Both the position numbers and the translations under genes were made by a program. Shown here piece after piece: positions 9,336-25,906 of a stretch of 64,000 bases of DNA. This stretch comes from Alkalispirochaeta sp. (GTDB lineage: Bacteria > Spirochaetota > Spirochaetia > DSM-27196 > Alkalispirochaetaceae). Under the pieces are notes generated by a model. The model was not told the DNA's origin. It searched no databases and was given only the letters and a program-made list of their open reading frames with translations. Numbering within the stretch: position 1 is the first letter of the stretch; the number at the start of each line of letters is the position of its first letter. The stretch covers positions 2,560,001 through 2,624,000 of the forward strand of contig OZ271854.1 in assembly GCA_965601925.1 (NCBI GenBank), read 5' to 3'.

Positions 9336-11576
9336 CTACCACTGGTACCCGTCACCGCCGACGGTAAAGGCGGGACCCAGAAGCACGTAGGCCAAAGCGC
9401 GGAAGTCTTCATTCATCGAGACTCCGATGTTGAGCTCTCCCAAAATCGTGTTGAATGCAAGGGCGGCTCGCGCTCCGGCAATCGCCTCAAACTCAACGAT
9501 CTCGTCGATATCTTCGGTCCAGATGCGTCCGACGTTACCGCCGATGCGAATGTACGCCTCCTCGCCGATGCCGAGCGGAAGATCGAAGATGGCGATGCGG
9601 AGGTCCGCACCGAGCCCGACGACGTGGTTGCCGCGCAGTTCGTTGTAGTAGTAGCCCTCGAAGATTTCTGCGCCGCCGGTGGAAAACTGCTCGTATTCGG
9701 GTAGCCCGGAGTCGAAGTCGGTGCCCAGTGCGCCGCGAATCTGCACGTTCAGCACGCGACCGAGGGGGATGAAATGTCGCGTCGATATCCCGAAGCGATC
9801 GTTCGCCGACTCTTCTTCGTCGTCATAGCGCCACCGATATCCGATGGTCGTCTCGCCCCCGCGATTCGGAAAGATCGGACGGTCGAGGTCGTCGAAGCGT
9901 AACTGCCCGCTCACCCCGACCCTCAGGGCGTCGATCTCTTCAATTTGATCGACTCCCTGCACGCGATCCAAGGCGAACTGCTCGACGAATCCCGATACGA
10001 CCACCAATGCGCGGCGTAGTGCGGTGAAATCGAATCCCAGCTCGGCGCCGGTCCGGCTCTGTAGATAGAGCGACTCCACCGTTCTTCCGTCGTAGAAGAT
10101 CAGTGGGGGTGCCAATGAGTAGGCGCCGATCGTGGCGCGCAGCGAGGCTATCACTGCGCCCGATACGGTGATACGGGCCTGAGGAACCTCGGTGAGCCAG
10201 ATGTCGGTCTCCAATAGTCCCCGTTCGGTGTTCATGCGGGAGCGGTAATTGAGGTTGAGTATCGAGCGATCGTTAACCTCGCCGTCAAGCGAAGAGCGAA
10301 ACCCGATACCGAGGCGTACCTCCGAATCGAAGGGCCGTTGAATGACGGCGTAGAGCACCACGTCATGCGCTCCGTCCTCGCGGCGAATTAGATCGTAAGA
10401 AACGTATTCGTACGCCCCGCCGTCGTAGAGGGCGTATATCGTCTCGCGGAGCTCCTCCCGGGTGAACCGCCCGTTGCGCAAGACGCGGCGCAACGCCTCG
10501 AGCTCCTCGGTGATGGGGTTCTCGAACGGAAACTCGATGCGCACGTCTCGTATCTGAAGATACTCGTCACGCCGTGAGGTCGGCGGCTCGTCGATCGTCC
10601 GAGGCGATTCCGCCGTCCCGTCGGATACCGTAGCGTCGAGGCGTTCTCTCAGCGCAACCAACTCGTCCCGCATCTCCAGTGCCGCCTGACGTCCCACCTC
10701 TACCAGCTCCAACGCGGAGCCGAAGTCCGTCGTCGTGTACTCCCGAAGATCGGGAGCGATGACGATGTCGGCAAGCTCCAGATTCCGCGAGAGTATCCGA
10801 CGGCGTAGAATCATATTGGACTGATCGGCAATCGTGAAGATATCGCGCAGCTCCTCGATATCGCGATCCGTCGTGATGAGGCTGACGGCGATGGTCGTAT
10901 GCGCGCCGAGATCGACCACGGCGTCGACCGGCAGGTTGTTTACCCAGCCGCCGTCGATCAGATAACGCCCGTCGTAGTACAGGGGCGACACCACTCCCGG
11001 TACGGCCATGCTCGCCCGAACGGCGCTTTTGAGGTCGCCGGACGTAAAGACGATCTCCTCGCCCGATACGAGGTCGGTCGCGACGATAGCAAGGGATCGC
11101 GGCAGATCCCGAAAGTCCTCGACGTCGGCGTGGTCTTCCAGCAGCTCGTCGAGAAACTCCACGACATTCTGCCCCGCCGACAAGCCGGAACGTCCCAACA
11201 ACGCACCGTCTGCAAAGCGGAGAGAGAAGCGATACCGGCGCGTCGATTCTTTGGCGTCGTAGTCGAGATATTCCCGGATAGGCGTATCGAAGAACAGGGC
11301 GTTCCAGTCGACCTCCTCCACGATGCGGAGGAGCTCCTCGACGGTGTATCCCGCGGCGTACAGCGATCCCACGATGCTCCCGATACTCGTGCCGGAGACG
11401 TACTGCGGATCAAAGCCGAGCTCTTCCAAGACGGTTATCACGCCCAAGTGCGCAAACCCGAGCGCCCCGCCGCCGGCCAACGCCAAACCCAGCCCCTCTT
11501 GTGCCGATACCGTAGGCGGATGGCTCGCCGCGGAGAGTGCGAATAGTAGAAAACCTGCGGTTAGAAATCGTTTCAT
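9336..11576 (-). CDS. Patatin-like phospholipase with POTRA/Omp85-type C-terminal barrel (PlpD-like)
   Basis: Signal peptide, GGGALG, GTSIG (GxSxG) and DGG motifs; C-terminal amphipathic beta strands. Confidence 0.85.
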   Translation of the reverse strand: MKRFLTAGFLLFALSAASHPPTVSAQEGLGLALAGGGALGFAHLGVITVLEELGFDPQYVSGTSIGSIVGSLYAAGYTVEELLRIVEEVDWNALFFDTPIREYLDYDAKESTRRYRFSLRFADGALLGRSGLSAGQNVVEFLDELLEDHADVEDFRDLPRSLAIVATDLVSGEEIVFTSGDLKSAVRASMAVPGVVSPLYYDGRYLIDGGWVNNLPVDAVVDLGAHTTIAVSLITTDRDIEELRDIFTIADQSNMILRRRILSRNLELADIVIAPDLREYTTTDFGSALELVEVGRQAALEMRDELVALRERLDATVSDGTAESPRTIDEPPTSRRDEYLQIRDVRIEFPFENPITEELEALRRVLRNGRFTREELRETIYALYDGGAYEYVSYDLIRREDGAHDVVLYAVIQRPFDSEVRLGIGFRSSLDGEVNDRSILNLNYRSRMNTERGLLETDIWLTEVPQARITVSGAVIASLRATIGAYSLAPPLIFYDGRTVESLYLQSRTGAELGFDFTALRRALVVVSGFVEQFALDRVQGVDQIEEIDALRVGVSGQLRFDDLDRPIFPNRGGETTIGYRWRYDDEEESANDRFGISTRHFIPLGRVLNVQIRGALGTDFDSGLPEYEQFSTGGAEIFEGYYYNELRGNHVVGLGADLRIAIFDLPLGIGEEAYIRIGGNVGRIWTEDIDEIVEFEAIAGARAALAFNTILGELNIGVSMNEDFRALAYVLLGPAFTVGGDGYQW

Positions 11577-11870
11577 GGGTGAGGTTCACACACTAATTCG
11601 TCGACGCCGGTGTGGTCAAGGAACGATGTGTTCCAAGCGTATTCGGGTGCGCGCTCACCGACTCGGCGAGGTCTCCGGGAGACCATTCATGTTGCCTCGC
11701 CCCGGCGCACCGACGCGTCTGCGCGGCGCTACGCGTTCGGGTTTCTCCGGCGCGTAGTCCGCCCGGCGCGATCCGGACGAACGATGTGATTGCAAATGAG
11801 AGCACAATCGGCCGCAACGACGCCGGAAACCCGGCCATACGCGAGCGCCAAATGGCGGTGCCGCTCGCGT

Positions 11871-13148
11871 CTACGGACAGCCCAGAGCGGCATCCTCTAC
11901 ACCGTAGAAACTGCGCGCTATGTACCACAGCTTCTTTTCCAAGTTGGTGTAGGAGAAGTATTTCAGGGCGAGATCGTAGTTCACCTCGACCATCTTCTCC
12001 GCGAGGCTCGGGTTATCCAGTACCTCGACGGTGCGCCGGATCGTCTCGTTCGAGACGAAATCGTCCATCTCGACGACACGGAACCCGAGCGGTTTGATGT
12101 CGTGGGAGTAAATCGAATAGTTGTTGACGACGATCGGTTTACGGAAATAGACCGCCTCCAGAAAGGCGTTCCCGAACCCCTCGAAGATCGACGGATACGT
12201 AACGAGATCGGCGTGGGGGTACACATCCTGCAGACTATATATCTTGCGTCCGTCGGAGGTCGTATCGCGTCGATCACCGATAACATCGTCGACGAAGATC
12301 GCTCGGATTCCCAACAACTCGGCGTATTCTTTTACTCGCGTCTGATATTCGTACCCCTCGTCTCCTGAGGCGTGCGAGATTACCAGCGCCGCCTTGCGAC
12401 CCAATCGAGCCACCAACTCGATGGCGTGTTCGATACCCTTCCGCTGGACGACGCGCGTCGGTTGTAAAATGAACAGTTCGTCGTCCGCGACACCTAACGC
12501 CCGGCGTACATCTTCGTTGTATTCGTCCAGCCCCGGGGCCGGCGTCTCGAAGTCCATCACGTTGGGAATGAGCGTGGAGCTGATACCGGTGCGCAGCGCG
12601 AGTTGGTTTTGTCCCGACGTGTTGATAACGACGTGGTGAACGTTGGGCAAGTGCGGTGGGAAGCAACTGTTGAGATAGTCCCACACGCAGTTGACCAGAA
12701 ACCGTTTACGCTCCCAAAAAAAATCGTGGTGGTGAGCGATCGTGTGAGTACCCGTCTCGGCGATGAACTCGGTAATCGCCATTCCCAGCGGTACGTTGAG
12801 CGGAATCGTAACTGCGTTTTCGGGGACGAGAATATCGATGTTGAATCGTTCGGCGAACTCGTACAGCGACGCCTTTATCTTTTCGCGGTGGTCGTGCAAC
12901 GTATGGGTGAGCTCTGCGGGGCGTACGGTGTTGGAGAAGCACGCCCGATAGGTGGAGCGGACATTCGGCTCTTGGAAATGAAAGTACGGCGCAAGCATAC
13001 TGTTGTCTTCCGGCGTATCCAGCTCACCGCCCAGGTAATAACAACTGCACCCGTTTCGCTCGAAGATGTCGGCCCACTTTTTGGTTTCAAGCGAGACCCC
13101 GTCGGTTCCGGCGATCCTGAATGAGACAAAGCCGATACGTTTATTCAT
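11871..13148 (-). CDS. GT4 glycosyltransferase, mannosylglucosylglycerate synthase (MggS)-like
   Basis: GTDGVSLETKKW, HHHDFFWER, QPTRVVQRKGIE and YPSIFEGFGNA motifs. Confidence 0.8.
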   Translation of the reverse strand: MNKRIGFVSFRIAGTDGVSLETKKWADIFERNGCSCYYLGGELDTPEDNSMLAPYFHFQEPNVRSTYRACFSNTVRPAELTHTLHDHREKIKASLYEFAERFNIDILVPENAVTIPLNVPLGMAITEFIAETGTHTIAHHHDFFWERKRFLVNCVWDYLNSCFPPHLPNVHHVVINTSGQNQLALRTGISSTLIPNVMDFETPAPGLDEYNEDVRRALGVADDELFILQPTRVVQRKGIEHAIELVARLGRKAALVISHASGDEGYEYQTRVKEYAELLGIRAIFVDDVIGDRRDTTSDGRKIYSLQDVYPHADLVTYPSIFEGFGNAFLEAVYFRKPIVVNNYSIYSHDIKPLGFRVVEMDDFVSNETIRRTVEVLDNPSLAEKMVEVNYDLALKYFSYTNLEKKLWYIARSFYGVEDAALGCP

Positions 13149-13220
13149 GTAGGAAAGTGTAGGATGGGATCGGTATCCGTGCAACCTTGGGTATCCTCCG
13201 CGTCCCGCCTAAGAATCTAT

Positions 13221-13946
13221 CTAATGAAACTCGCTATACCGCACACCGTCCTGATCGATCTCCCGCAGTAGCGCGAGCTCCTCCTGCGCGGGCGGCGACA
13301 GTTCCGCGCAATCGGCCGTCTCTGCGATGGGAAAGGCGGTGTTGCGGCGTATCTCGTCGCGATTGGAGTAGGGAAACCACCCCGCCAGACGCAGCTCGCC
13401 GTCCTCTACGCGCAACAGCCCCAACGGGGAGACGACCTCGCGGACATTACCGGCCGCGGTGACGAAGTCGCACCGGTCTGGAAAGCTGCGCCGGTCGTGG
13501 CGCGTACGCCATACGATGGTACGGCGGGCGGTGGGGACGATTGCGGCGCTCCCCGCACCTCCCGGGAGCTTGACCTTGGGTGCATCGAAGCGTCCGATAA
13601 CGCTGTTGTTTATGTTCCCTAACCGATCGATCTGCACGCCCCCCAAAAACGCGACGTCCAGCCGCCCGCGCGCCGAGAGGTCGAAGATATCGACGAGGGA
13701 AAAGAACGATTCGCTTCCTTCGAGAAAACGCGGGGAGCATGTTGAGCTGTCCAGCCGGGTGGGGTCGATGTTTACCCCGCCGGCGATGTTGAGATACAGA
13801 AGCGATCGGTTATGCATGCGCCGCGCCAGTGCGATAGCGACCGCCGGCAGAGGACTTGCAAGGCCGTGAAAGACGGTCTGCGCACCCTTGAGAAGCCGCG
13901 CCATCGTCACCGCCATAGCGTCACCCACAGTTGTTGTATCGATCAT
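13221..13946 (-). CDS. CoA-transferase-fold beta subunit (GctB/AibB-like)
   Basis: GLASPLP, FLGGVQIDRLGNIN and KLPGGAG motifs; overlaps the alpha gene. Confidence 0.8.
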   Translation of the reverse strand: MIDTTTVGDAMAVTMARLLKGAQTVFHGLASPLPAVAIALARRMHNRSLLYLNIAGGVNIDPTRLDSSTCSPRFLEGSESFFSLVDIFDLSARGRLDVAFLGGVQIDRLGNINNSVIGRFDAPKVKLPGGAGSAAIVPTARRTIVWRTRHDRRSFPDRCDFVTAAGNVREVVSPLGLLRVEDGELRLAGWFPYSNRDEIRRNTAFPIAETADCAELSPPAQEELALLREIDQDGVRYSEFH

Positions 13947-14752
13947 TGTTCGCCATCCAAGAGACGGGCCAACGACTCCTCGTCGGCCGCCTCGATCAAA
14001 CTCGTTACGCCCTCCTCGTCGATCTCATACTCGCCGTAACAGCTCCCCGGCGCCGCGCCGCGTGGGGCGTGTACTACGGCATTGACCAGTACCGACGGGA
14101 TATCCACGTGATCCACGGGGACGGGAAGATCCGCCGTCTCGACGATATGTTCCGCGGTCAGCACTACCGTCCGCGCCGCGCGGGCCATAATGAGATCCTC
14201 GTTCTTTGAGCCCACGATGACGCCGTTTCCGGTCGTGTCGGCGTACTGGACGTGCATGACGGCCATGTCTGGAACGATGGCGGGTATCACTACGACGTGC
14301 TCCGTCTCGTCGTACGGATCGGCGATACGGCGGAACGATCGCGCCTCCACCAGATCGCTTCCGTCCAATCCGCGTACCGGAAGAAATCCCAGACCGTAGG
14401 ACGCCGCTCGCAGAGCGGCGATCACCGTATAGCAGGCGTGTTCCCGTGCCTTCACCGCGCCGGACTCTACCGCTCTTCGGTAGTGTCGAGCGAGGCCGAA
14501 GCGAGACTCGTATCCCACGAATCCCGCCGACACGTCGGTCACCATTCCCGCGAGGCACAATAGATCGATATCCCACGCTCCGGCGGTCTTGACGATATGG
14601 AGTTTAAGGTCGCCCCGGCGATGGCGCGCCAACGCTCTGATGAAGGAGTGGGGTACACGATGGAGGCTATTGCCGCCGACGGCGAGGGTCCTTGATCCCG
14701 GCTCGAGAAGTGCCGCGGCGCTACGCATGGAAGTGACTCGTGACGACGTCAT
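13943..14752 (-). CDS. CoA-transferase-fold alpha subunit (GctA-like)
   Basis: GGNSLHRVP, ALRAASYGLGFLP, HVQYADTTGN and GAAPGSCYGEY motifs. Confidence 0.85.
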   Translation of the reverse strand: MTSSRVTSMRSAAALLEPGSRTLAVGGNSLHRVPHSFIRALARHRRGDLKLHIVKTAGAWDIDLLCLAGMVTDVSAGFVGYESRFGLARHYRRAVESGAVKAREHACYTVIAALRAASYGLGFLPVRGLDGSDLVEARSFRRIADPYDETEHVVVIPAIVPDMAVMHVQYADTTGNGVIVGSKNEDLIMARAARTVVLTAEHIVETADLPVPVDHVDIPSVLVNAVVHAPRGAAPGSCYGEYEIDEEGVTSLIEAADEESLARLLDGEQ

Positions 14753-14758
14753 GGACGC

Positions 14759-14767
14759 ATTATACCA
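14759..14767 (-). promoter_or_regulatory. Extended -10 promoter (TGGTATAAT), leaderless CoA-transferase-fold operon
   Basis: TG-G-TATAAT ends 6 nt before the ATG at 14752. Confidence 0.7.
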
Positions 14768-14858
14768 CTATTTCGGAAATATATAGTCTTAAACGTGCAT
14801 GTTTTTCGCCATTAACAAGCCGCAAAAGATGATGAATGTGGTTTTGTGTGTTTTTTTG

Positions 14859-14887
14859 TTGACATCAGGTATAACCGGACCTACAAT
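14859..14887 (+). promoter_or_regulatory. sigma70 promoter of the BMC operon
   Basis: TTGACA(14859)-17 nt-TACAAT(14882); GGAGG RBS before 14923. Confidence 0.8.
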
Positions 14888-14922
14888 CACATGCAACGCA
14901 CGTTGGAGGTGCCGGAGGACGC

Positions 14923-15633
14923 ATGGTAGAGCTTTTGACGTACGCCTACTTGGACCGGTTGCAACCGCAATTTACCGCATTCGTCGCGACGATCGCCAAG
15001 GGGTACCTACCCCTTTCGGGGCAGGCGAGCCTTTGGGTCGAGATCCGCCCCGGCATGGATATCAACCGTCTGACCGACATCGCCCTCAAATCCAATGATG
15101 TGCAGCCCGGTATCATGTATGTGGAGCGCGCCGCGGGTGTGCTTGAGTTCCACAGCTACGACCAAGGCGCGGTCACCGAGGCGGGACACGCAATCCTCGC
15201 ATCCCTCGGCATGACGGTCGAAGATCGTCACAAGCCGGAGCTGGTTGGGTTGGAGACGGTGAAGAACGTCACGGACTTTCAGTGTCAGCTTATCAACCGT
15301 ATGCGTCACGGCAACATGATCCTGCCGGGCGAGACGCTGTTGACTATCGAGACGCAGCCGGCTTCCTACGCCGCATTGGCAGCCAACGAGGCGGAGAAGG
15401 CGGCGCGTATCAATATTCTCGAGGTGCGCGCAATCGGCGCCTTCGGGCGTGTCTATATCGGCGGTGAGGAGGGTGAAGTCCTGGCCGCCAAAGATGCGGC
15501 CGAACGCGCCGTCGGCGATATTGCCGGTCAAGGGCGCCTAAAGGAGATCACGAACCATTGGGTAATGGCGGGTAGAGACGATTCAACGGACGGCAAAGGA
15601 GACGCAAGGATATGGCGGATGCACTGGGGATGA
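14923..15633 (+). CDS. BMC shell protein, permuted tandem-domain BMC-T (CcmP/CsoS1D-like, double-stacking class)
   Basis: [40 protein letters not shown] and [10 protein letters not shown] motifs. Confidence 0.92.
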
Positions 15634-15911
15634 TCGAAGCGCAAGGATTTGTCGGCATGGTTGAGGCGGCCGACGCGATGGTCAAAGCCGCTAAGGTGGA
15701 GCTTGTCGGATACGAGAAGACCGGGGGCGGATACGTGACGGCGATCGTGCGCGGAGATGTCGCGGCGGTAAAGGCCGCCACCGAAGCGGGAGCCAAAAGC
15801 GCCGAGCGCGTCGGACGACTGGTGAGCGTTCACGTCATTCCGCGGCCTCACGAGAACGTCGATACGGCGCTCCCTCTGGGGCGTCAGGAACGCGGAAAAG
15901 GCGAGAAGTAA
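15612..15911 (+). CDS. BMC-H hexamer shell protein (PduA/EutM/CcmK family)
   Basis: ALGMIE...[22 protein letters not shown] and HVIPRPH motifs; AAGGA RBS. Confidence 0.97.
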
Positions 15912-15923
15912 GGAGCGTGGACG

Positions 15924-16211
15924 GTGAATCTGGCCCGAGTCGTCGGTACGGTGGTTGCTACGCAAAAGGAACCATCGATGGTCGGGAGTACGTTTCTCGT
16001 CTTGGAGCGCTTGGCTCACGACCTGCAATCTGCCGGCGAGTTCGTCGTTGCCGTTGACGCCGTCGGCGCGGGGGAGTCTGAGGTCGTCCTATACGCCACG
16101 GGTTCGTCGGCGCGGCAAACCGCGGTGACGCGTGATCGACCGGCGGACGCGGTCGTGATGGCGATCGTCGACTCGTTTTCCATCGGCGACCGTACGGTGT
16201 TTAGGAAGTAG
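15924..16211 (+). CDS. BMC-P pentamer vertex protein (EutN/CcmL family)
   Basis: MNLARVVGTVVATQK, AVDAVGAG, GSSAR and DAVVMAIVD motifs. Confidence 0.95.
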   Translation: MNLARVVGTVVATQKEPSMVGSTFLVLERLAHDLQSAGEFVVAVDAVGAGESEVVLYATGSSARQTAVTRDRPADAVVMAIVDSFSIGDRTVFRK

Positions 16212-16221
16212 CGGGGAGAGC

Positions 16222-17685
16222 ATGCTCTTACACGAACGCCATCTTGAACAAATCGTCGAACGGGTCGTCTCTCGCCTGACCGAAGAGGGAGTCGGAAGGT
16301 CCGCCGGACGCGTCGTCGCGAATCGAACGCATGAGGGCGCTTCGTTGCGTGATGTGCCGCATCTCGGCGTCTTTCGTGATATTGAGTCAGCCGTTGCCGC
16401 GGCGCAATCCGCCTCGCGAGAACTCTCTCGGCTACCCCTCGCTCGCCGGGATGAGATCGTCGGCGCGATGCGGCGTACCGCTCTGGATCACCTCGAGCTC
16501 CTCGCCGGGACGGCGCGGGAAGAGACCGGTATGGGTCGCGTCGAAGATAAGGTCGAGAAGAACCGCCTCGTCGCCGAGAAGACGCCGGGTGTCGAGGCGT
16601 TGGCTACCGCCGCGACGACCGGCGATCTCGGGATCACCCTCGATGCGCGCGCTCCGTACGGAGTGATCGGCGCCATCATTCCCAGCACCAATCCGACCGA
16701 GACGGTGATCAACAACGGTATCGGAATGTTCGCCGCCGGGAACGCCGTCGTCTTTAACCCGCATCCCGCCGCGGCGCGGTGCTCTTTGGCGATCATGAGT
16801 ATGCTCAATCGCGCCATCGCCGAGGGCGGCGGGCCGGAGCACTCCTTCGTCGCCGTAGAGGAACCGACGATCGATACTGCCACGGCGATTATGCGCGACC
16901 GGGACGTTCCCTTCTTGGCGGTCACCGGATCCGAGGGCGTCGTTGCCGCGGCCATGCAGAGCGGCAAGAAGGTCGTGGCGGCGGGGCCGGGCAATCCGCC
17001 GGCGGTCGTGGACGAGAGCGCCGACATCTCGAAGGCCGCCCGCGATATTCTGGCCGGTGGCTCCCTCGACAATAACATCATTTGCATCGCCGAGAAGGTC
17101 ACCGTCGTCGTCGAGGCGGTCGCCCGGCAGCTGGTAGAGGAGATGGGGAGGGCCGGTGCGTACTGCGCCTCGGCCAACCAAATTCGGCAGCTGCAGAATG
17201 TGTTGTTCGCCCGCGAGCCCGAGCCCGGGCGTCACACGCCGGTACGTCGCGAGTTCGTCGGGCGCGACGCGCGCGTGCTTTTGGAGGCGATCGGTACGCG
17301 CGTCGACGGCGATCCGCGGCTGATCTTGTGTGAGGTCTCACCGGATCACCCTTTTGCATGGACGGAGATGTTGATGCCGGTGATGCCCATCGTGCGGGTG
17401 CGCGACGTCGGCGAGGCGATAGACTACGCGGTCGCGGTTGAGGGTGGGAATCGACACACCGCGAGTATGCATTCCCGTAATATCGACGTCCTCACTGAAA
17501 TGGGGCGACGAATCGGCTGTTCGGTCTATGTGAAAAACGGCCCCAACTACGCCGGCTTGGGCTTAGGCGGCGAAGGAATCACCTCCTTCACCATCGCCTC
17601 TCGCACCGGCGACGGCCTCACCACCGCTCGGACCTTCTCCCGCGCCCAGCGCTGCGCCCTGGTCGGAAACTACGGCATCGTATGA
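16222..17685 (+). CDS. CoA-acylating aldehyde dehydrogenase (EutE/PduP family) with N-terminal encapsulation peptide
   Basis: PSTNP, FNPHP, AGPGNPP, catalytic Cys in DNNIICIAEK, EMLMP and RHTASMHS motifs; N-terminal LEQIVERVVSRL amphipathic helix. Confidence 0.95.
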   Translation: MLLHERHLEQIVERVVSRLTEEGVGRSAGRVVANRTHEGASLRDVPHLGVFRDIESAVAAAQSASRELSRLPLARRDEIVGAMRRTALDHLELLAGTAREETGMGRVEDKVEKNRLVAEKTPGVEALATAATTGDLGITLDARAPYGVIGAIIPSTNPTETVINNGIGMFAAGNAVVFNPHPAAARCSLAIMSMLNRAIAEGGGPEHSFVAVEEPTIDTATAIMRDRDVPFLAVTGSEGVVAAAMQSGKKVVAAGPGNPPAVVDESADISKAARDILAGGSLDNNIICIAEKVTVVVEAVARQLVEEMGRAGAYCASANQIRQLQNVLFAREPEPGRHTPVRREFVGRDARVLLEAIGTRVDGDPRLILCEVSPDHPFAWTEMLMPVMPIVRVRDVGEAIDYAVAVEGGNRHTASMHSRNIDVLTEMGRRIGCSVYVKNGPNYAGLGLGGEGITSFTIASRTGDGLTTARTFSRAQRCALVGNYGIV

Positions 17686-17692
17686 GGCGCAT

Positions 17693-18274
17693 ATGGCGTA
17701 TCGACTGACCATCGTACCGACGCCCGAGACGTTCGGCGCTCTGGAGTTGACCGGCATCGCCCGTGGATACGCGGTGGTAGATCGGATGCTCAAAAAGGCG
17801 CCAGTACGCCTCTTGGACGCCCGCGCATACTGTCCCGGAAAGTTTTTGATCGCAATATCCGGCGACGTCGCCTCCGTAGAAGAGGCGCTGGGGACCGGTA
17901 GTCGCCACGCCGGCGAGGCGCTCTTCGGTACCCTATGTGTCGCAAACATCAACCCGGGAGTCATTGCAGCGATCAACCGCGAGGCTGCGTGTGAGGTCGA
18001 CGACACGCTCGGTGTTGTGGAGAGTTTTTCCGCGGTATCGATCATCGACGCCGCCGACGGTGCGGTCAAAGAGGCGGACGTCGCGATTCACAGCATCAGT
18101 CTGCTGCAGGGGCTCGGCGGCAAGGCGTTTGCGCTGTTTGCCGGAGAGCTTTCGGAGGTTACCGCGGCGATCGAGGCGGCGCGGCGGCGCATACCCGGCG
18201 ATATGCTCGTGGAGGCTCAGATAATCCCCGAGATTTCGCCGGACGTCGCGCGGTTTCTACCGGGGAGGGAGTGA
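17693..18274 (+). CDS. BMC-T shell protein, PduT-like
   Basis: Two BMC domains: GALELTGIARG...CPGKF and LGVVESFS...IDAADGAVK...GLGGK. Confidence 0.92.
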   Translation: MAYRLTIVPTPETFGALELTGIARGYAVVDRMLKKAPVRLLDARAYCPGKFLIAISGDVASVEEALGTGSRHAGEALFGTLCVANINPGVIAAINREAACEVDDTLGVVESFSAVSIIDAADGAVKEADVAIHSISLLQGLGGKAFALFAGELSEVTAAIEAARRRIPGDMLVEAQIIPEISPDVARFLPGRE

Positions 18275-18275
18275 C

Positions 18276-18545
18276 GTGTTTTTGGGACGGGCGATGGGTG
18301 TCGTTGAGGTTACAGTTGCGTGCGACGGCCTATCGGGGGTGCCGTTGTTGTGGGTGCAGCCAGAACGATCCGACGGCGCGCCGGCCGGCTCCGCAATCGT
18401 GGTCGCCGATTCGACCTACCGTGCCGGTCCGGGAGATCGCGTGTATATCGTCGACGGGCGGGAGGCGACCTTTCCGCTTCCCTCGCCGTTTGTCCCCGTC
18501 GACGCGACGATCGTCGGAATCGTCGACGAAGTGGATTGCCCATGA
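18276..18545 (+). CDS. BMC-P pentamer vertex protein 2
   Basis: MFLGRAMG, VVAD...AGPGDRV and PVDATIVGIVD motifs. Confidence 0.88.
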   Translation: MFLGRAMGVVEVTVACDGLSGVPLLWVQPERSDGAPAGSAIVVADSTYRAGPGDRVYIVDGREATFPLPSPFVPVDATIVGIVDEVDCP

Positions 18546-18817
18546 GATTGGGAGTCGTGCGCGGAACGGTTACCGCGACCGTAAAGCATCCCCATTACGA
18601 CGGTCGGCGGCTCTTGGTGGTCGCGCTGTGCGACCCTGCGGGGAACGCCGCCGGTAAAGAGACTGTGGCCGTCGATACGGTCGAGGCGGGAGTCGGGGAC
18701 CGCGTCTTGGTCCTGAAGGAGGGCAACTCGGCGCGGGCCGTGTTGGGATTGGATAAGCCCGCAGTGCAGGAGATGATTGTGGCGATCGTCGATTATGTGG
18801 AAGTAAGAGGAGCGTAG
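18542..18817 (+). CDS. BMC-P pentamer vertex protein 3
   Basis: ATG 18542 overlaps the previous stop; MRLGVVRGTVTATVKH, AVDTVEAGVGDRV and EGNSAR motifs. Confidence 0.92.
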   Translation: MRLGVVRGTVTATVKHPHYDGRRLLVVALCDPAGNAAGKETVAVDTVEAGVGDRVLVLKEGNSARAVLGLDKPAVQEMIVAIVDYVEVRGA

Positions 18818-18819
18818 CG

Positions 18820-19704
18820 ATGTTTCCTACCGAGTTGGAGGCGCGCAAGGACATTGCCCACTACAGTCGCAAGGTGCACGCCCACGGTTTGGTATCGGCC
18901 ACGGACGGTAACCTTTCCGTGCGTCTCGACGACGAACACGTTTTAATTACTCCATCGAGTATTCGCAAAGAGGATATGACGGTCGAAGCGCCGGTTATCG
19001 TGACGATGGCGGGAGAGTTGGCGTGGGGAGAACGGCGTCCATCGACGGAGGTGAAGGTGCATCTCGAAGCGTATCGCCGCCGAAGGGATATCAAAGCGGT
19101 GATTCACGCCCATCCGCCGAAGGCGATCGCCTTTACCATCGCCGGCGCCTCGCTGGATACGTGCGTGCTCCCAGAGGTGGTGGTGACTCTCGGCGACGTC
19201 CCGATAGCGCCGTACGCGACGCCCAGCACCGACGACCTCCCCGCATCCATGAGCGATCTCATTTGCAATAGCGACGTCGTCATGCTTGCGCGCCACGGAA
19301 GTGTTACGGTGGGACCGACCCTTGCCGACGCATTCAAAAAGTTGGAAAAGCTGGAGCATAACGCGGAGATTCTGATATACGCCCGAGTTCTGGGCGGTGC
19401 GACGCCCTTCTCAACGGAGCAGTTGGAAGAGCTTCAGAATTTGCGAACCTTCTACGGCGTCACGACGACGGTCAATGCATGTTCCCGCAGGACGAATGGA
19501 GAGTCGGTGGCGGCGCCGTGCCGGAAGTACGCGGTGGAGTCCGAGATCCATGCGCCTACATATCGGTCCGATCGTGACGTCTCGACGCCGACCCACGGAT
19601 CGGGCGGCGCACCGATCGGCGTTCAGAGAGATCCCGGTGCGACCGATGTCGAGGTAGACGCCCTGATAGATGAGATCGTCGCGCGCGTGCGTGCTCGACT
19701 CTGA
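18820..19704 (+). CDS. Class II (FucA/Ald2-type, metal-dependent) aldolase with C-terminal encapsulation peptide
   Basis: DGNLSVR, ITPS, PSTEVKVH, HAHPP and RHG motifs; long linker then VDALIDEIVARVRARL. Confidence 0.93.
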   Translation: MFPTELEARKDIAHYSRKVHAHGLVSATDGNLSVRLDDEHVLITPSSIRKEDMTVEAPVIVTMAGELAWGERRPSTEVKVHLEAYRRRRDIKAVIHAHPPKAIAFTIAGASLDTCVLPEVVVTLGDVPIAPYATPSTDDLPASMSDLICNSDVVMLARHGSVTVGPTLADAFKKLEKLEHNAEILIYARVLGGATPFSTEQLEELQNLRTFYGVTTTVNACSRRTNGESVAAPCRKYAVESEIHAPTYRSDRDVSTPTHGSGGAPIGVQRDPGATDVEVDALIDEIVARVRARL

Positions 19705-19736
19705 GATAACGTCCAAGAACGATAAGGAGGAACGTC

Positions 19737-20939
19737 GTGGCGTATAAGACCCTCAACGAACGGACAGCGATCGATTATGTGAGTAAAAAAACGCACCCCT
19801 TCTCCGATACCTCGGCGCTGGCGTGTCGTGAAATAGGCGACGGGAATCTCAACATGGTCTTTCGTGTGTGGGATACCGGTGATTCGCATAAGAGCGTGAT
19901 AATCAAACAGTCGCTCCCCCACGCCCGCATAGACGAGAGTATCGTGGCACCCCTGGATCGGGCGCGTATCGAGAGTGAAATGTTGGTGCTCCACGATCGA
20001 CACTGTCCGGGGCTCGCGCCCAAGATTCACGATTACGACCGCGAGATGTACGCGATCGTCATGGAGGATCTCTCGGATCACGTCGTGCTTCGCAAAGGGT
20101 TGATCAAGGGCGTTGTCTACCCGCGCCTGGCCGATCACATGGGGGAGTTTCTCGCTCGTTCGCTTTTTCTGACATCCGATCTGGGCATGGACCCGCAGGA
20201 AAAGAAGGAGTTACAAAAGCAGTTCATTAATCCAGCGCTGTGCAAAATCACTGAGGATCTCGTCTTCAGCGAGCCGTACTTCGACGCCCCGAACAACAAG
20301 ATCGACCCGGAGATTCGCGAGCGCGTCGAAGAGAATTGGAGCGACGGCGCGCTCAAACGGGAGGTCGCCGTCCTCAAGGAGTCGTTCATGACCCACGCTC
20401 AGGCGCTCATTCACGGAGATCTTCACACCGGGAGTGTTTTCGTCACTACCGAGAGCACCAAGGCGTTCGACCCCGAATTCGGCTTCTTCGGTCCCATGGG
20501 ATTCGATATCGGCGCGATTCTGGGCAACCTCATTTTGAATCACGCGAGCCACATCTGGCACACCGCCGACGAGGCGCAGCGCGCCTCGTACCGCGAGTAT
20601 CTTCTGACCACGTTCAAAGGTATTTGGGAGACCTTCTCGCGCCTCTTTCGAGCGTTGTGGCGCGAGAAGGTGACGACGCCTATGGAGAGTAATCCGCTCT
20701 ATATGGAGAGCTACATGAAACGGCTCTTTGCCGACGCCATCGGCTTCGCGGGGTGTAAGATGACGCGGCGCATCGTCGGTCTTGCTCAAGTTGAAGATAT
20801 CCGGTCCATCGAGGACGCCATGGTGCGTGAGGCGGCGCAGGTCACCGCGCTGAATACGGCGCGGGATTTCATCATGAAGCGGCGGGAGTATCGTTCGATC
20901 GACGAGGTTGTAGAGACAGTGCGCGCCCATCAAGTGTAG
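19737..20939 (+). CDS. mtnK: S-methyl-5-thioribose (5-deoxyribose) kinase
   Basis: EIGDGNLNMVF, KQSLP, NPALCKITEDLVF, LIHGDLHTGS, DPEF and RRIVGLA motifs; AAGGAGG RBS. Confidence 0.93.
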   Translation: MAYKTLNERTAIDYVSKKTHPFSDTSALACREIGDGNLNMVFRVWDTGDSHKSVIIKQSLPHARIDESIVAPLDRARIESEMLVLHDRHCPGLAPKIHDYDREMYAIVMEDLSDHVVLRKGLIKGVVYPRLADHMGEFLARSLFLTSDLGMDPQEKKELQKQFINPALCKITEDLVFSEPYFDAPNNKIDPEIRERVEENWSDGALKREVAVLKESFMTHAQALIHGDLHTGSVFVTTESTKAFDPEFGFFGPMGFDIGAILGNLILNHASHIWHTADEAQRASYREYLLTTFKGIWETFSRLFRALWREKVTTPMESNPLYMESYMKRLFADAIGFAGCKMTRRIVGLAQVEDIRSIEDAMVREAAQVTALNTARDFIMKRREYRSIDEVVETVRAHQV

Positions 20940-20978
20940 CCGGTGTGTTATATTCCCCTACGTAGGAGGATGTGACCG

Positions 20979-21761
20979 ATGCTCGCTGTGGAGAGGCGCC
21001 ATGCTATTTTCGGAATACTTCAGGAGACCGGCAGCGTAACGGTCGTCGAGTTGTCGCGACGGTTCGACGTGAGCGAAGAGACGATCCGACGCGATCTCAC
21101 CAAGATGGAGAGCTCCGGATTGCTGCAAAAGACATACGGCGGCGCGTTTCTCAACAGCGGGATGCACCTGGAAGTTCCCGTGACGATGCGGGAGCACACG
21201 TATGTTGAGGGTAAGAACATCATCGGAACCCTCAGCTCGCAGTTGATACATAACGGCGATACTATTTTTCTCGACGCCAGTACGACCGCGGTTTATATCG
21301 CCGAGAACATCCTCGACAAGAAGAATCTCATCGTGATTACCAATGCGCTAAAAGTCGCCGAAACGTTGGCCCGCGGTCCCGGGATCAAAGTTATCTGCGC
21401 CGGGGGGACGTTGAGATCCCAGTCTCTTACGATGGTCGGCAAGGCCGCGGAGACGGCGATTGCCACCTACTTTGCCGACAAAGCCTTCATCTGTTGTGAC
21501 GGCGTCCATCGTCTGCACGGGGTCACGGACGCCAATGAAAAAGAGGCGGAGATTCGCAAACAGATGATGCGTCAGGCCGAGAGCTCGATCCTGGTGGTCG
21601 ACGCAACCAAGTTCGACAAAACGTCGTTCGTCCATATGGCCGATTTCGGCGCCTTCGACGTGATGGTCACCGACCGCGAGGTATCGTCGGAGTGGAGAAC
21701 GACGTTGGAGGAGCACGATGTCCAGCTCCGATGCGGAGTCGCTCCGAGCGGCGCCGCATGA
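20979..21761 (+). CDS. DeoR/GlpR family transcriptional regulator
   Basis: HTH VSEETIRRDL, TYGGA, IFLDASTT and DATKF motifs. Confidence 0.95.
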   Translation: MLAVERRHAIFGILQETGSVTVVELSRRFDVSEETIRRDLTKMESSGLLQKTYGGAFLNSGMHLEVPVTMREHTYVEGKNIIGTLSSQLIHNGDTIFLDASTTAVYIAENILDKKNLIVITNALKVAETLARGPGIKVICAGGTLRSQSLTMVGKAAETAIATYFADKAFICCDGVHRLHGVTDANEKEAEIRKQMMRQAESSILVVDATKFDKTSFVHMADFGAFDVMVTDREVSSEWRTTLEEHDVQLRCGVAPSGAA

Positions 21762-21967
21762 ACCGTCGATTCGGGGGAGCCGCGTCGTCGTGAACGCTTC
21801 TGGCGACCGAGGCGCGTAAAAAGTCACCACATTCATGTCTTTCTCTCCGATATACGCGCGGCACGGTATCGACGCCCTCTCCGGAATGTGTCGGAAGTGA
21901 CGGCGTTCGATCTATCTCCGTTTTTTCATAGAAAACCACATAAACAGTCATCAAGATAAAAAATCAT

Positions 21968-21996
21968 TTGACATTGCACGATTGTGGGAGCATAAT
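21968..21996 (+). promoter_or_regulatory. sigma70 promoter of the transporter/mtnA operon
   Basis: TTGACA-17 nt-CATAAT. Confidence 0.8.
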
Positions 21997-22081
21997 TCTG
22001 GAAAACCAGCTAAGAAACAACATTAGCTTGGTATAAAACCACAAAATTGGCATATCATATGCCGGGTACAAGGAGGGGAAG

Positions 22082-23149
22082 ATGCAAAGGAGTCTAATTC
22101 TGTTTTTGATTACCGTGCTGGTCGCAGGTACCGGTTTCGTATACGCCGCCGGCCAGGGCGAGTCCGACGAAAACGTGACGAGAATCGAAGGTGCTCCCGC
22201 CCCCTTCGACGGAAGTGCCGGGCGGCAGCTGCATATCGCGCACATCAGCTATTTGGTCGAGGGCGAGTTTATGCAGATGTATCGCGCCGGTCTGGAGGCT
22301 CAGGCACAGGAACTCGGTATGCGCGTTACGGTGCTCGGAAGACAGGGCGACGCGCAGGCGCAGGCCAATTTCGTGAATCAGGCGATCAACCTCGGCGTCG
22401 ACGGCATTGTCATTCAGCACGGGCTCACCGAAACGATGCGGGGCCCCGCCCAGGACGCTTTGGACGCCGGCATTCCCGTGGTCGCGTTCGACGTCGATCT
22501 ACAGAATTCGAATATCCCGCAAGTGGCGCAAAACGACCCGCAACACGGATTGAACGCAATCACTGCGATCGTCGAGGATTTCGGTGGAAACGTCGACATG
22601 GCCTACGTGCGTGTTGCCGGCATTCTGCCCCTCGACAAGCGCGACGGACCGATTCAGGAGATCGTTGCCGCCTATCCGAACGTGAGTATTGTGGCCCAGA
22701 CCGGTACACTCGACTCTCCTATTGCCGTGCGCAATGCCGACCAGGCCCAGGCGGTGCTACGGGCAAACCCGAGTATTCAGGCGTATTTAGCGCCGTACGA
22801 CGAGTTTGCCAAGGGTATCGTTCTTGCTCTGGAGGAGTTGGAGATGACCGACTCGGTGCGGGTGTACAGCATCGATATCTCGACGCAGGACATCGAGATC
22901 ATGACGCAGCCCGGTAGTCCCTGGGTCATGACCTCCGCGGTCAATCCCGCGGAGATGGGGGCCGTGTCGGTGCGCACCCTTGCGCAAGTAATGGCCGGCG
23001 AGGATGTGCCGCGCGATGTTCTGGTGGAGCCCATGATTTTCACCGCCGATATGCTGCGCGAGGCGGGTGTGACGAACATGGAAGAGCTCATGGCGAGTTT
23101 CGCGGCATTTAACGAATCCCCGGCGGCGCGTTCTATTTGGATGCCCTGA
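22082..23149 (+). CDS. Sugar ABC transporter substrate-binding protein (RbsB-like)
   Basis: Signal peptide ending AAGQGE; VDGIVI, GIPVVAFD and DEFAKG motifs; AAGGAGG RBS. Confidence 0.9.
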   Translation: MQRSLILFLITVLVAGTGFVYAAGQGESDENVTRIEGAPAPFDGSAGRQLHIAHISYLVEGEFMQMYRAGLEAQAQELGMRVTVLGRQGDAQAQANFVNQAINLGVDGIVIQHGLTETMRGPAQDALDAGIPVVAFDVDLQNSNIPQVAQNDPQHGLNAITAIVEDFGGNVDMAYVRVAGILPLDKRDGPIQEIVAAYPNVSIVAQTGTLDSPIAVRNADQAQAVLRANPSIQAYLAPYDEFAKGIVLALEELEMTDSVRVYSIDISTQDIEIMTQPGSPWVMTSAVNPAEMGAVSVRTLAQVMAGEDVPRDVLVEPMIFTADMLREAGVTNMEELMASFAAFNESPAARSIWMP

Positions 23150-23267
23150 TAACGAGATCAGATACGATTTTTTCCTCGACGATAGATGCCGCCGTCCCGA
23201 TACGGGGCGACGGCCGAGCCATACTTGCGTATGATCGTGGATACCGATTGCGCGTGCGGAGAGCATT

Positions 23268-24347
23268 ATGCATTATGACGAACGGACGATGACGAATACC
23301 GAAACGATCAAGAGCATCGAGTGGCGTTCAGGAGCACTCTTTCTTCTCGATCAAACGAAGCTGCCTCTATCGGTAGAGGTCGAGGAACAGACGAGCGTCG
23401 AACAGGTATGGGACTCCATCAGGCAGTTGAAGGTACGCGGAGCGCCGGCGATCGGTGTCGCGGGCGCGTACGGTCTGGTCGTCGCGATGCGGGACAAAAC
23501 AAGTCTCGATAGGCCTTCATTTCTCGCGGAACTTCGGCGACAAGCCGCCTATCTGGACTCGTCGCGTCCGACCGCCGTCAACCTTCATTGGGCGTTGACG
23601 CGCTGCGTTCGCGTCGTTGACGCCGTCGAAGGTGGAACGGGCGACGAACTCCTGGCGACGCTCGTCGCCGAGGCGGAAGCGATCCACAAGGAGGATCTGC
23701 TTCTGTGCCGACGCATCGGCGAACGCGGGGAGCATCTCATCCGCGAAGGCGTCGGTATCCTCACCCACTGTAACGCCGGACGGCTCGCGGCCTCCGACTA
23801 CGGGACCGCTACCGCGCCCATGTATCTCGCTCATGAGAAGGGCGTACGGTTTACCGTCTATTCCGACGAGAGTCGGCCGTTGTTGCAGGGCTCGCGACTC
23901 ACCGCGTGGGAGCTGCGGGAGGCCGGAATCGATGTGTATACGATTACCGACAATATGGCCGCCTTTGTAATGCAAAAGGGGTTGATCGACATGGTGATCG
24001 TCGGTACCGATCGCGTGGCGGCCAACGGCGACGTCGCCAATAAAATCGGCACCATGGGCGTGGCGATTCTCGCCAAACACTTCGGTATCCCGTTCTACGT
24101 TGCGAGTCCCGCCTCCACCATCGACCTCAACACGGCTACCGGCGACGATATCGTGATCGAGGAGCGTAGTACGGACGAAGTGACGCACTTCGGCCTTAGA
24201 CGCACCGCTCCCGAAGGTGTCAAGGTACGTAACCCGGCTTTCGACGTGACGCCCGGAGAGTTGGTCACCGCGTTTATCACCGATGCGGGCGTCATCGAAC
24301 CGCCGTACGACGCGAATCTCGCGCGCATGTTCGCGCCGGACGCGTAA
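23268..24347 (+). CDS. mtnA: S-methyl-5-thioribose-1-phosphate isomerase (start may be 23289)
   Basis: LLDQTKLP, VRGAPAIG, SRPTAVNL, LTHCNAG, ESRPLLQGSRLT, NGDVANKIGT and NPAFDVTP motifs. Confidence 0.95.
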   Translation: MHYDERTMTNTETIKSIEWRSGALFLLDQTKLPLSVEVEEQTSVEQVWDSIRQLKVRGAPAIGVAGAYGLVVAMRDKTSLDRPSFLAELRRQAAYLDSSRPTAVNLHWALTRCVRVVDAVEGGTGDELLATLVAEAEAIHKEDLLLCRRIGERGEHLIREGVGILTHCNAGRLAASDYGTATAPMYLAHEKGVRFTVYSDESRPLLQGSRLTAWELREAGIDVYTITDNMAAFVMQKGLIDMVIVGTDRVAANGDVANKIGTMGVAILAKHFGIPFYVASPASTIDLNTATGDDIVIEERSTDEVTHFGLRRTAPEGVKVRNPAFDVTPGELVTAFITDAGVIEPPYDANLARMFAPDA

Positions 24348-24370
24348 CGTCGCGTATCGAGGAGGCGCGT

Positions 24371-25906
24371 GTGGCTCGACCGTCCCCATTGATTGAAGTA
24401 CGAAACATCGGCAAATCCTTCGGTGCGACGCGGGCGCTGGACGATGTTTCGGTGGAGTTCTTTCCCGGCGAGGTCTTGGCGATGGTAGGCGCCAACGGGG
24501 CGGGCAAGTCGACGTTGATAAAGATCATCTGCGGATATCACGTAGACTTCGACGGTGAAATCGTGATCGGGGGTCGGCCGGTACGTTTGGCGACGCCGAA
24601 AGACGCTGCCGACAACGGTGTCGCGACGGTACACCAGATCATCAACCAAGGCGTCGTACAGAGTATGTCGGTGTATGAGAATCTTACGTTGGCCGAGCTG
24701 CTCGCTCCGGGTCAACGTCCCTTCTATGATAGAAATGCGCTTCGCGAGCGCGCGCGAGAGATCGCGCTTTTGATGGGGCTTGAGGTCGATTTGGACGTCG
24801 CGGTGGAGGATTTGAGCCAGTCCGACCGACAACTCATCGCCATCGCTCGCGCCTTGGCGGGAGATCCGAAGCTCCTCATTCTGGACGAGCCGACCAGTTC
24901 ATTATCCGAGAAGGAGTCCGAGCGCCTTTTTGAGATGTTGGAACGGCTCAAGGCGACGGGCGTCTCGATTCTGTACGTCTCGCATCGCCTACACGAAATC
25001 GGGCGTATCGCCGACCGCGTGGTGGTCCTACGAGACGGGACCACCGCGGGAACGCTGACGCGTCCCTTCGACGTCAAGGAGATGGTAACCAGAATGGTCG
25101 GAGAGATTCCCAAGCACCAGCACATGGTACGAAGCAACGGTCGCGACGAGGCGGAGCTCAAGATCGCGTTGCGCGATCTGGTCGTGAGCGAGGGTTCTCC
25201 GCCCGTAAACTTGCGCATCCATCGCGGCGAGATACTCGGCATAACCGGGCTCATCGGAGCGGGGAAAAGCGAGTTGGCCCAGGTGTTGTTCGGGATCAGG
25301 CGGCCCGTTTCCGGCGATATTCTGGTGGATGGACGGCGTATCGCGCCGCGGAGCGTCGCCGAGGCGGTCGCGCGGGGAATCTTCTACGTACCGGAGGATC
25401 GCACCAACAACGCGGTCGTACCTATGTTTACGGTGCGGCAGAATATGACGCTTCCTTTTTTGCGCGTCTTCGACTGGTTGGGAATCATGAAGATCGGCAG
25501 CGAACGCCGGCGGACCCGCGCTATGATCGAGGCGATGGGCATTAAGTGCGACGGCGAAGAGGCTGAAATGGACAGTCTCTCAGGCGGTAATCAACAAAAG
25601 GTCGTCGTGGCGCGGTGGCTTCTGGAGTCCTTCGAACTGGTGATTCTCGACGAGCCCTTTCAGGGCGTCGATGTCCGCTCGCGTCACGATATAGGACGCC
25701 ATCTGAGGGAGCACATCGGCGAACGGGCGGCGATCGTCATCGCGACCGATCTGGACGAGGTTATCGAAGTCGCCGACCGCATCATCGTTATGAACGCCGG
25801 CGCGATTGTCGGAGAGCAGCTCTATGAAAACATCGATCGCGATCAACTTCTCCATTGGGTCTCCCAGGAGGCCCCGCAAGGCGAGCGGGAGGCGCTTGAA
25901 GCATGA
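24371..25906 (+). CDS. Sugar ABC transporter ATP-binding protein with two ABC domains (RbsA-like)
   Basis: GANGAGKST, ILDEPT and LSGGNQQK motifs. Confidence 0.95.
   Translation: MARPSPLIEVRNIGKSFGATRALDDVSVEFFPGEVLAMVGANGAGKSTLIKIICGYHVDFDGEIVIGGRPVRLATPKDAADNGVATVHQIINQGVVQSMSVYENLTLAELLAPGQRPFYDRNALRERAREIALLMGLEVDLDVAVEDLSQSDRQLIAIARALAGDPKLLILDEPTSSLSEKESERLFEMLERLKATGVSILYVSHRLHEIGRIADRVVVLRDGTTAGTLTRPFDVKEMVTRMVGEIPKHQHMVRSNGRDEAELKIALRDLVVSEGSPPVNLRIHRGEILGITGLIGAGKSELAQVLFGIRRPVSGDILVDGRRIAPRSVAEAVARGIFYVPEDRTNNAVVPMFTVRQNMTLPFLRVFDWLGIMKIGSERRRTRAMIEAMGIKCDGEEAEMDSLSGGNQQKVVVARWLLESFELVILDEPFQGVDVRSRHDIGRHLREHIGERAAIVIATDLDEVIEVADRIIVMNAGAIVGEQLYENIDRDQLLHWVSQEAPQGEREALEA

Follow-up and report, generated by a model that had tools for sequence, protein, structure and literature searches.

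A gene system at positions 13221-26940 of the window (the whole 64,000-nt stretch of Alkalispirochaeta sp. contig OZ271854.1 that was analysed, within which coordinates of this genome are given) is predicted to encode a bacterial microcompartment linked to a dihydroxyacetone phosphate (DHAP) shunt that breaks down 5-deoxyribose or methylthioribose and keeps the step involving the toxic aldehyde within the shell. We give this reading, drawn from sequence comparison, a probability of roughly 0.7.

The core of the system is a block of eight genes on the plus strand (14923-19704; intergenic gaps of -22 to 12 nt), the sole shell locus detected by tblastn in the genome (5.05 Mb, one contig, 96.7% complete). 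All eight were found in the order given by the initial annotation, with one BMC-H and three BMC-P: a CcmP-like BMC-Tdp, the permuted T protein (14923-15633, overlapping the BMC-H start by 22 nt), the BMC-H (15612-15911, the only copy in the genome), a first BMC-P pentamer (15924-16211; PF03319), a CoA-acylating aldehyde dehydrogenase (AldDH) of the EutE/PduP type (16222-17685; NF011927, 607.5 bits against a cut-off of 403), a PduT-like BMC-Ts (17693-18274), two further BMC-P pentamers identified by domain search (18276-18545 and 18542-18817), and a class II aldolase, the predicted signature enzyme (18820-19704; PF00596). The system is wider than this block. MtnK (19737-20939; TIGR01767, 500.5 bits, cut-off 275) begins 32 nt downstream of the aldolase, which bears out the claim that the joined shell blocks are linked to substrate-defining genes. 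On the same strand follow a DeoR-family regulator (20979-21761; PF00455 and PF08220), the solute-binding protein of a sugar ATP-binding cassette (ABC) importer (22082-23149), MtnA, the isomerase for 5-methylthioribose-1-phosphate/5-deoxyribose-1-phosphate (23268-24347; TIGR00512, 436.9 bits, cut-off 279), and the importer's ATPase (24371-25906; domain and family profiles) and permease (25903-26940; domain search). mtnK and mtnA are each single-copy in the genome. Divergent from the shell promoter, on the minus strand, lie the beta (13221-13946) and alpha (13943-14752) subunits of a CoA-transferase-fold pair.

In the pathway that we propose, the ABC system would import a free 5-deoxy-pentose, a waste product of S-adenosylmethionine (SAM) chemistry, and the untailed MtnK and MtnA would make the ribulose-1-phosphate in the cytosol. 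This phosphate would enter the shell, probably via the Tdp pore, to be cleaved by the tailed aldolase into DHAP and acetaldehyde or (methylthio)acetaldehyde. The tailed AldDH would convert the aldehyde to an acyl-CoA, DHAP would exit to glycolysis, and the divergent CoA-transferase-fold pair would handle the acyl-CoA via its Cys107, with DeoR controlling both promoters of the system. Both sugars probably pass. As the intended substrate we lean slightly toward methylthioribose over 5-deoxyribose, because acetyl-CoA would need no dedicated enzyme.

The aldolase, its partners and the spread of the locus

A kinase, an isomerase plus an aldolase of class II together yield DHAP and an aldehyde, according to the available text of PMC6079011, PMC10986504 and PMC13474568. 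Residues E77, H96, H98 and H159 of the window aldolase were invariant in 45 aldolase homologues, and E77 aligns with Glu76 of DrdA; the nearest named homologues come from Spirochaetales, including Alkalispirochaeta. Two kinds of relatives argue that this enzyme works with MtnA. Aldolase-MtnA fusions of ~580 aa occur in two genomes (L400:565-2388, minus strand, in G574; L401:5344-7131, minus strand, in G572), their aldolase parts being 67-68% identical to the window aldolase and nested in its clade (98/95). Besides its fusion, G574 carries the complete shell locus, and G572, at 89% completeness, showed no BMC domain. In addition, four shell-less copies of the aldolase lie beside or near mtnA (L126-L129; the L126 contig ends 230 nt upstream).

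The C-terminus of the window aldolase comprises a 70-residue linker and a helix resembling an encapsulation peptide. All 14 shell-adjacent aldolases in the clade had a linker, variable in length, and a terminal helix; none of the four shell-less free copies did, and these measure 224-227 aa. The terminal helix of the shell-adjacent aldolases resembles the encapsulation-peptide-like helix with which the AldDH starts (an enzyme whose Cys288 lies in an NNIICIAEK motif); MtnK and MtnA have no tail extension. From the descriptions in the available parts of PMC8217296, we infer that these terminal helices are encapsulation peptides.

Within this genome, the binding protein is the best match to the mtnK-adjacent ones of Sinorhizobium (47%) and Enterobacter (33%), and the permease is likewise the best match to the importers beside mtnK in both. 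An MtnN-like nucleosidase fragment scored over TIGR01704 but not over NF004079, and acetate kinases are encoded elsewhere in the genome.

A sigma70-like promoter for the shell operon (TTGACA-17-TACAAT, 14859-14887) has a candidate operator, TGTGGTTTT, just upstream, the two together spanning 14835-14887 on the plus strand. A second sigma70-like promoter (21968-21996) sits between two inverted copies of the candidate operator (21929-22045 in all, plus strand), which are the two best matches in the genome; the sites at the locus rank 1st, 2nd and 15th genome-wide. With a matrix trained on the transporter promoters of relatives, from a seed picked by eye in the window and with kin that are not independent, 7 of the 8 shell promoters belonging to such loci scored at least 12, against one of 14 control shell promoters and 4.3% of AT-rich genome windows. 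We infer that DeoR controls both promoters through the common candidate site.

Conservation was assessed in 99 genomes of the order. The aldolase clade was found in 15 and mtnK in 14; ten genomes had both, always at the same locus (10/10) and directly adjacent in nine. The full shell version was present in eight of the 99, on one contig in G000, G017, G019, G024 and G574 and with contig-end breaks in G004, G007 and G010 (the aldolase is present twice in G010, whose contamination is 7%; mtnA was not seen in G007). A P-P-P-aldolase-mtnK-DeoR-ABC-mtnA module is joined to an EutABC ethanolamine locus in G044 (L123-L124), and in G015 (L125, L133) a pentamer-aldolase-mtnK module stands separate from its ethanolamine locus; a two-substrate shell is possible in these genomes. 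A first metagenome scan yielded no such locus and a second yielded one further among 80 (L256). In a 400-genome sample of the phylum there were 14 other aldolase matches (38-50% identity), with mtnK in none of the 10 flanks fetched among them.

The relatives offered several side observations. A second binding-protein-like gene (PF01547), without a tblastn match in this genome, accompanies most of them (L111:8811-9947, L112:11048-12265, L120, L123 and L125; also L420:10035-11213 of Acetoanaerobium). An RbsD/FucU mutarotase adjoins the CoA-transferase-fold pair in G019 (L113:18083-18649, minus strand), and such a mutarotase is also described in one 5-deoxyribose cluster in the available text of PMC6079011. 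Loci L135, L136 and L403 combine mtnK-mtnA-ABC-DeoR with RuBisCO-like genes and no aldolase, the shell locus lying elsewhere in those genomes; this module is possibly an isoprenoid-shunt version. In an Anaerolineae locus (L047:6974-11210), BMC-H and BMC-P genes are convergent to an operon of a permease, mtnK and a non-acylating aldehyde dehydrogenase.

In a plasmid collection, Acetoanaerobium noterae gave the best match for both the aldolase and the CoA-transferase-fold beta subunit. Its locus (L420:4462-20268) encodes DeoR, a tailed aldolase (41%), AldDH, the CoA-transferase-fold pair (45%), an ABC importer, MtnK and MtnA, together with a phosphotransacylase (PTAC), a binding-protein-like gene and a CoA-disulfide reductase (NF007123, over cut-off). 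The shell is PVM-like, with four BMC-H, a single BMC-P but no BMC-T seen, and the aldolase falls on another branch than that of the window; the pathway genes are thus shared and the shell differs.

As for the flanks of the window system, the upstream block (5180-13184) is unrelated and holds one gene with a family 1 glycosyltransferase domain, another with an alpha-amylase domain, a patatin-Omp85 fusion and two open reading frames without a Pfam match. At the other end, the C-terminal piece of a Sir2-family gene (26909-27343, minus strand; profile positions 133-180 of 180), apparently truncated, overlaps the end of the permease gene.

A CoA-transferase-fold pair with a conserved cysteine

The beta subunit (PF01144; Gct/AibB-like, best PDB matches 5N03/5MZW) has a close orthologue in exactly the eight genomes with the full locus. 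The best solved relatives of the pair as a whole are 5MZW-5N03, which we take to be the AibA/AibB decarboxylase. Beta Ile54 aligns, via canonical homologues, with the Glu of the ESG motif of 1POI_B, that is, the catalytic Glu of glutaconate CoA-transferase is absent. In AibB, according to the available text of PMC7756340, a Cys replaces this Glu. The pair was also considered as a simple replacement for PTAC; this idea was dropped because the catalytic Glu is absent and Acetoanaerobium has both.

In the alpha subunit, Cys107 belongs to a conserved EHAC motif. It was kept in all eight aligned locus copies and occupies the column at which PDB entries 6CO6 and 6COJ (IpdA) differ by Glu/Ala; that Glu is presumably the catalytic one. 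In five of eight distant homologues (L430-L433 and L435; the eight were drawn from 401 sampled genomes of G101's phylum), the Cys107 codon is an in-frame TGA, and SelA was present in all five TGA-bearing genomes, the only ones checked for it. When the 60 nt following the codon were folded to look for selenocysteine insertion sequence hairpins, TGA genes and TGC genes could not be told apart. The relatives of the alpha subunit are likely a selenoprotein family with selenocysteine (Sec) at the Cys107 column, and Cys107 itself is likely catalytic, given its conservation, the Glu/Ala column in IpdA and the TGA codon in SelA-bearing relatives. Eight Chloroflexota-side homologues of the pair lie beside neither mtnK nor mtnA; the family is therefore not confined to this pathway.

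By analogy, the pair may strip the methylthio group from (methylthio)acetyl-CoA. This proposal draws on the CoA-disulfide reductase neighbour in Acetoanaerobium and on a precedent for thiol-dependent methylthio removal in Rhodospirillum (available text of PMC13474568); acyl transfer or hydrolysis via Cys107 is equally open. The nearest CoA-disulfide reductase homologue in this genome (32%) is encoded away from the locus. A more specific version, to which we assign a fairly low probability, is a methylthioribose-burning organelle with a new form of sulfur release, in which the Cys107 enzyme would demethylthiolate (methylthio)acetyl-CoA to acetyl-CoA and a methyl disulfide, the latter being reduced to methanethiol by a CoA-disulfide reductase such as the Acetoanaerobium neighbour. 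If true, it would constitute an oxygen-independent route from methylthioadenosine waste to methanethiol that needs no nitrogenase-like reductase, a first pathway for a Cys/Sec enzyme family that is uncatalogued (the selenocysteine family was not the subject of a literature search), and a case of one substrate served by at least two different shell types.

Shell proteins and the Haliangium ochraceum shell

The initial annotation likened the shell set and gene order to those of the Haliangium ochraceum (HO) microcompartment and held the BMC-H to be very close to that of HO. The latter claim stands: in the PDB, BMC-H is best matched by HO-5815 and the tandem fusion of HO-5815, with 79 of 92 aligned residues (86%) identical to HO-5815, and BMC-H identity is 83-89% to H proteins of the HO family versus 75-76% to SPU2 and 65-81% to SPU3. 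In place of H. ochraceum's own aldolase and AldDH, five genomes from the family of G065 (a Kofleriaceae locus) were used as HO proxies. All five carry T-H-P-AldDH-T and P-P-aldolase at separate places, as the initial annotation gave for HO. Joined blocks, aldolase included, are already catalogued for HO type II in the supplement of PMC8217296.

The likeness in shell set and order stood in part. A single BMC-H with three BMC-P is found here as in HO, and the BMC-P triplet with a CcmP-like Tdp and one Ts is found here as in SPU2/SPU3. The order T-H-P-AldDH-T-P-P is also SPU3-like: it occurred in 19 of 80 loci fetched with BMC-H, 17 of them behind DeoC as in SPU3. The Tdp scored 234 bits against CcmP, 218 against HO-5816 and 207 against 5V76, and the Ts, which has a pore-type Cys (YCPGK) yet no PduS in its locus, scored 115 bits against PduT and 75 against HO T1 (5DIH). 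For comparison, the two Tdp of one HO-proxy genome scored 361 bits against HO-5816 and 299 against 5V76. The Tdp was 48-51% identical to HO proxies versus 51-62% to SPU2/SPU3, and the AldDH 46-50% versus 45-52%; beyond BMC-H, the window proteins are no nearer to the HO proxies than to SPU2/SPU3. This genome has a single Tdp versus two in each of the five HO-family genomes, and two BMC-Tdp, one on a satellite locus, are likewise given for HO in the supplement of PMC8217296. The window Tdp runs ~30 residues beyond the end seen in relatives (205-208 aa), the extension (15540-15633) reaching into the BMC-H start; contigs of one sample showed no frameshift explaining this tail, an observation that does not count as independent support.

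In trees with the family proxies, the aldolase lies in a spirochaete clade, and the HO satellite aldolases, 33-39% identical to it, form their own clade (100/99); their union was rejected (p-AU 0.037). For the AldDH, spirochaete SPU2 came out as a weak sister (89 in a quick tree; 79/81). Joining it to HO type I alone was rejected by the approximately unbiased (AU) test (p 0.034), and joining it to HO I plus II/SPU5-like sequences was not (p 0.18). The Tdp falls outside the HO-main group (97) in a quick tree, with an AU p of 0.17, and groups weakly with the HO satellite Tdp (66/74). The AU tests were run under LG+G4 on sets cut down to 24, 50 and 29 rows; the 61-row AldDH tree is a quick tree only, and the bootstrap of the 81-row aldolase tree had not settled. 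Given the aldolase clade, the mixed AldDH results and the weak grouping of the Tdp, we regard the locus as a sister lineage in the HO/SPU2/SPU3/SPU5 shell neighbourhood and not as a demonstrated member of the HO type, for which the support is weak.

The initial annotation had further suggested that the locus could reveal the native substrate of the HO model shell. Our results speak against this, given the placement of the aldolase and the distribution of mtnK. Of the two genes that HO-type genomes might encode, mtnK was over its family cut-off in none of 43 genomes (one weak match), these being the genomes of the 80 fetched loci picked as HO-like or SPU3-like, nor in any of the five HO-family proxies. 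For mtnA, the cut-off was passed in 23 of 29 shell-bearing genomes, HO-like ones and others, and in all five of the HO family; the gene was not found within any HO-like shell or satellite locus examined. In three of the five HO-family genomes (L236-L238) mtnA adjoins a short aldolase, apart from the shell loci, which groups with E. coli Ald2 in all three cases (100/94). The HO-family organisms thus seem to have an ordinary DHAP shunt apart from the shell, and the substrate of the window locus probably does not carry over to the HO shell.

Competing explanations and known systems

Several observations weigh against a shell-linked DHAP shunt at this locus. The locus showed no alcohol dehydrogenase and the genome no PTAC (PF06130), which leaves the recycling of NAD+ and CoA unaccounted for. 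The aldolase is not orthologous to Ald2/DrdA (30-31% identity, separate branch) and belongs to a broad microcompartment aldolase group, and the hydrophobic moment of its tail is 0.26 versus 0.38 for the C-terminus of MtnK, so that the tails were not separated from ordinary termini. The operator motif, first spotted by eye, also scores in two loci without mtnK, and the sampled genomes are kin, their counts not being independent. The same shell with a tailed aldolase occurs in G060 and G075, where no mtnK was found and the only mtnA is a distant one encoded elsewhere (45-46%); this type of shell can therefore operate in the absence of the mtnK-mtnA module; in G060 (L116, L130) an FGGY kinase and a class II fructose-bisphosphate aldolase follow the tailed aldolase, and its substrate may differ from that of the window locus (the G075 locus is L015). 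Four genomes have a related mtnK-mtnA-ABC module without such an aldolase, three of them beside a RuBisCO-like gene, and G015 has both the aldolase version and the related module. Finally, the tailed aldolase of Brevibacillus laterosporus lies beside mtnA (L421:9755-12800) with no shell gene within 12 kb; DeoR is divergent from the two, two shell loci lie elsewhere in the record, and targeting in trans is possible.

The same route might serve another 5-substituted pentose, for instance one with another thioether or a halogen at C5, with the shell trapping the matching substituted acetaldehyde. The promiscuity of MtnK/MtnA-type enzymes and class II aldolases and the fluoro-ribose precedent in Streptomyces cattleya (available text of PMC6079011) would allow this, and the Cys/Sec pair and the PF01547 gene are not part of the shunts as described in the available sources. 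We consider it unlikely, as the transporter best matches the mtnK-adjacent importers of organisms that have ordinary methionine-salvage genes, and no modifying enzyme was seen in the locus. Another explanation sees two neighbours with two jobs, the shell and aldolase acting on a 6-deoxy-hexose phosphate as in PVM and mtnK-mtnA-ABC being merely adjacent. The assignment of the aldolase to the microcompartment group and not the Ald2/DrdA group would fit, as would G060 and G075 and the occurrence of the module without the aldolase. The aldolase-MtnA fusions, the four shell-less copies near mtnA, the common promoter motif and the same pairing in a Firmicute make it improbable, as does the fact that no other outlet was found for the MtnA product.

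This last point also bears on the idea that the aldolase-fold protein is the MtnB dehydratase of ordinary methionine salvage. In favour of that idea, MtnB has PF00596 in common with it and takes the MtnA product as substrate (available text of PMC6302742). The window protein scores 77.6 against an MtnB cut-off of 137 and lies far from two MtnB references in trees; MtnC, MtnD, MtnW and MtnX had no tblastn match in the genome (single-protein queries from Bacillus and Enterobacter), and a dehydratase would yield no aldehyde for the AldDH. We give this idea hardly any credence. Only slightly better placed, and still very improbable, is an HO-type organelle, with HO shells also running a DHAP shunt via a phosphorylase and an unlinked mtnA. 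In its favour are the BMC-H identity to HO-5815, a gene set equal to that of HO type II (PMC8217296, available parts), the AldDH union with all HO-like rows that was not rejected, the weak grouping of the Tdp with the HO satellite and the frequency of mtnA in HO-like genomes. Set against these are the separate clade of the HO satellite aldolases, the single Tdp, the lack of mtnK over cut-off, the position of mtnA outside every HO-like shell locus examined and its tree-placed aldolase partner, a short Ald2-like enzyme in all three HO-family cases.

The system, most likely a shell-linked shunt, is a real, conserved and apparently unpublished microcompartment subtype built from known parts. We found no published microcompartment with a 5-deoxyribose or methylthioribose shunt, in a search that left most subscription papers outside; the searched supplements of the 2021 catalogue have no mention of methylthio, PF01008 or deoxyribose, and its two larger supplements and locus diagrams may show such loci. 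Many catalogued microcompartments have an aldehyde dehydrogenase and no known aldehyde source, and this locus names one, a sugar waste of SAM chemistry. The prediction is directly testable, as the enzymes are soluble and homologues come from the cultured genera Alkalispirochaeta and Acetoanaerobium. These pathway genes occur with an SPU/HO-like shell, with a PVM-like shell and in an ethanolamine-joined locus; together with tail-less and fused kin they form a natural series for the recruitment of enzymes into shells. Regarding the substrate of the HO model shell the outcome is chiefly negative; what the locus offers is a near-identical hexamer with a predicted native cargo.

Among known systems, the DHAP shunts of Bacillus thuringiensis (DrdK-DrdI-DrdA, PMC6079011) and E. 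coli (MtnK-MtnA-Ald2, PMC10986504), as described in the available text, both cluster a kinase, an isomerase, a class II aldolase and a sugar importer, and that text makes no mention of a shell. The catalytic Glu and three His are kept in the window aldolase; the locus differs from these shunts by the tail and microcompartment-group affinity of that enzyme, the shell, the acylating AldDH and the CoA-transferase-fold pair. The pair shares with the non-transferases AibA/AibB and IpdAB a Gct-family fold without the beta catalytic Glu, with Ile54 here in place of Cys56 in AibB (available text of PMC7756340), and differs from them by the alpha-subunit Cys107, likely Sec in relatives. PVM and PVM-like systems, for which fucose/rhamnose-type substrates are expected, have PTAC and more than one BMC-H (available parts of PMC4207490, PMC8217296 and PMC8156839), neither of which is present in the window genome.

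Within the available parts of PMC8217296, HO types I/II have in common with the window locus one BMC-H, three BMC-P, BMC-Ts, an AldDH with an N-terminal peptide, a PF00596 aldolase and no PTAC; the window locus differs by its one Tdp, Cys-pore Ts, non-HO-clade aldolase, spirochaete-like host and linked mtnK, mtnA, importer and DeoR. SPU3-like loci have the identical T-H-P-AldDH-T-P-P order. From the same source, SPU2 resembles the window locus in its CcmP-like Tdp, in a Cys-pore Ts that often lacks a PduS, and in its AldDH, which is the nearest one with weak support. In SPU5, five loci include a PF00596 aldolase with a tail; the PduS that SPU5 has beside a Cys-pore Ts is absent from the window locus. 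The window locus departs from SPU2, SPU3 and SPU5 in having no DeoC (PF01791) or RpiB (PF02502), homologues of which are encoded elsewhere in the genome, and its predicted substrate is a 5-deoxy-pentose 1-phosphate, not 2-deoxyribose 5-phosphate.

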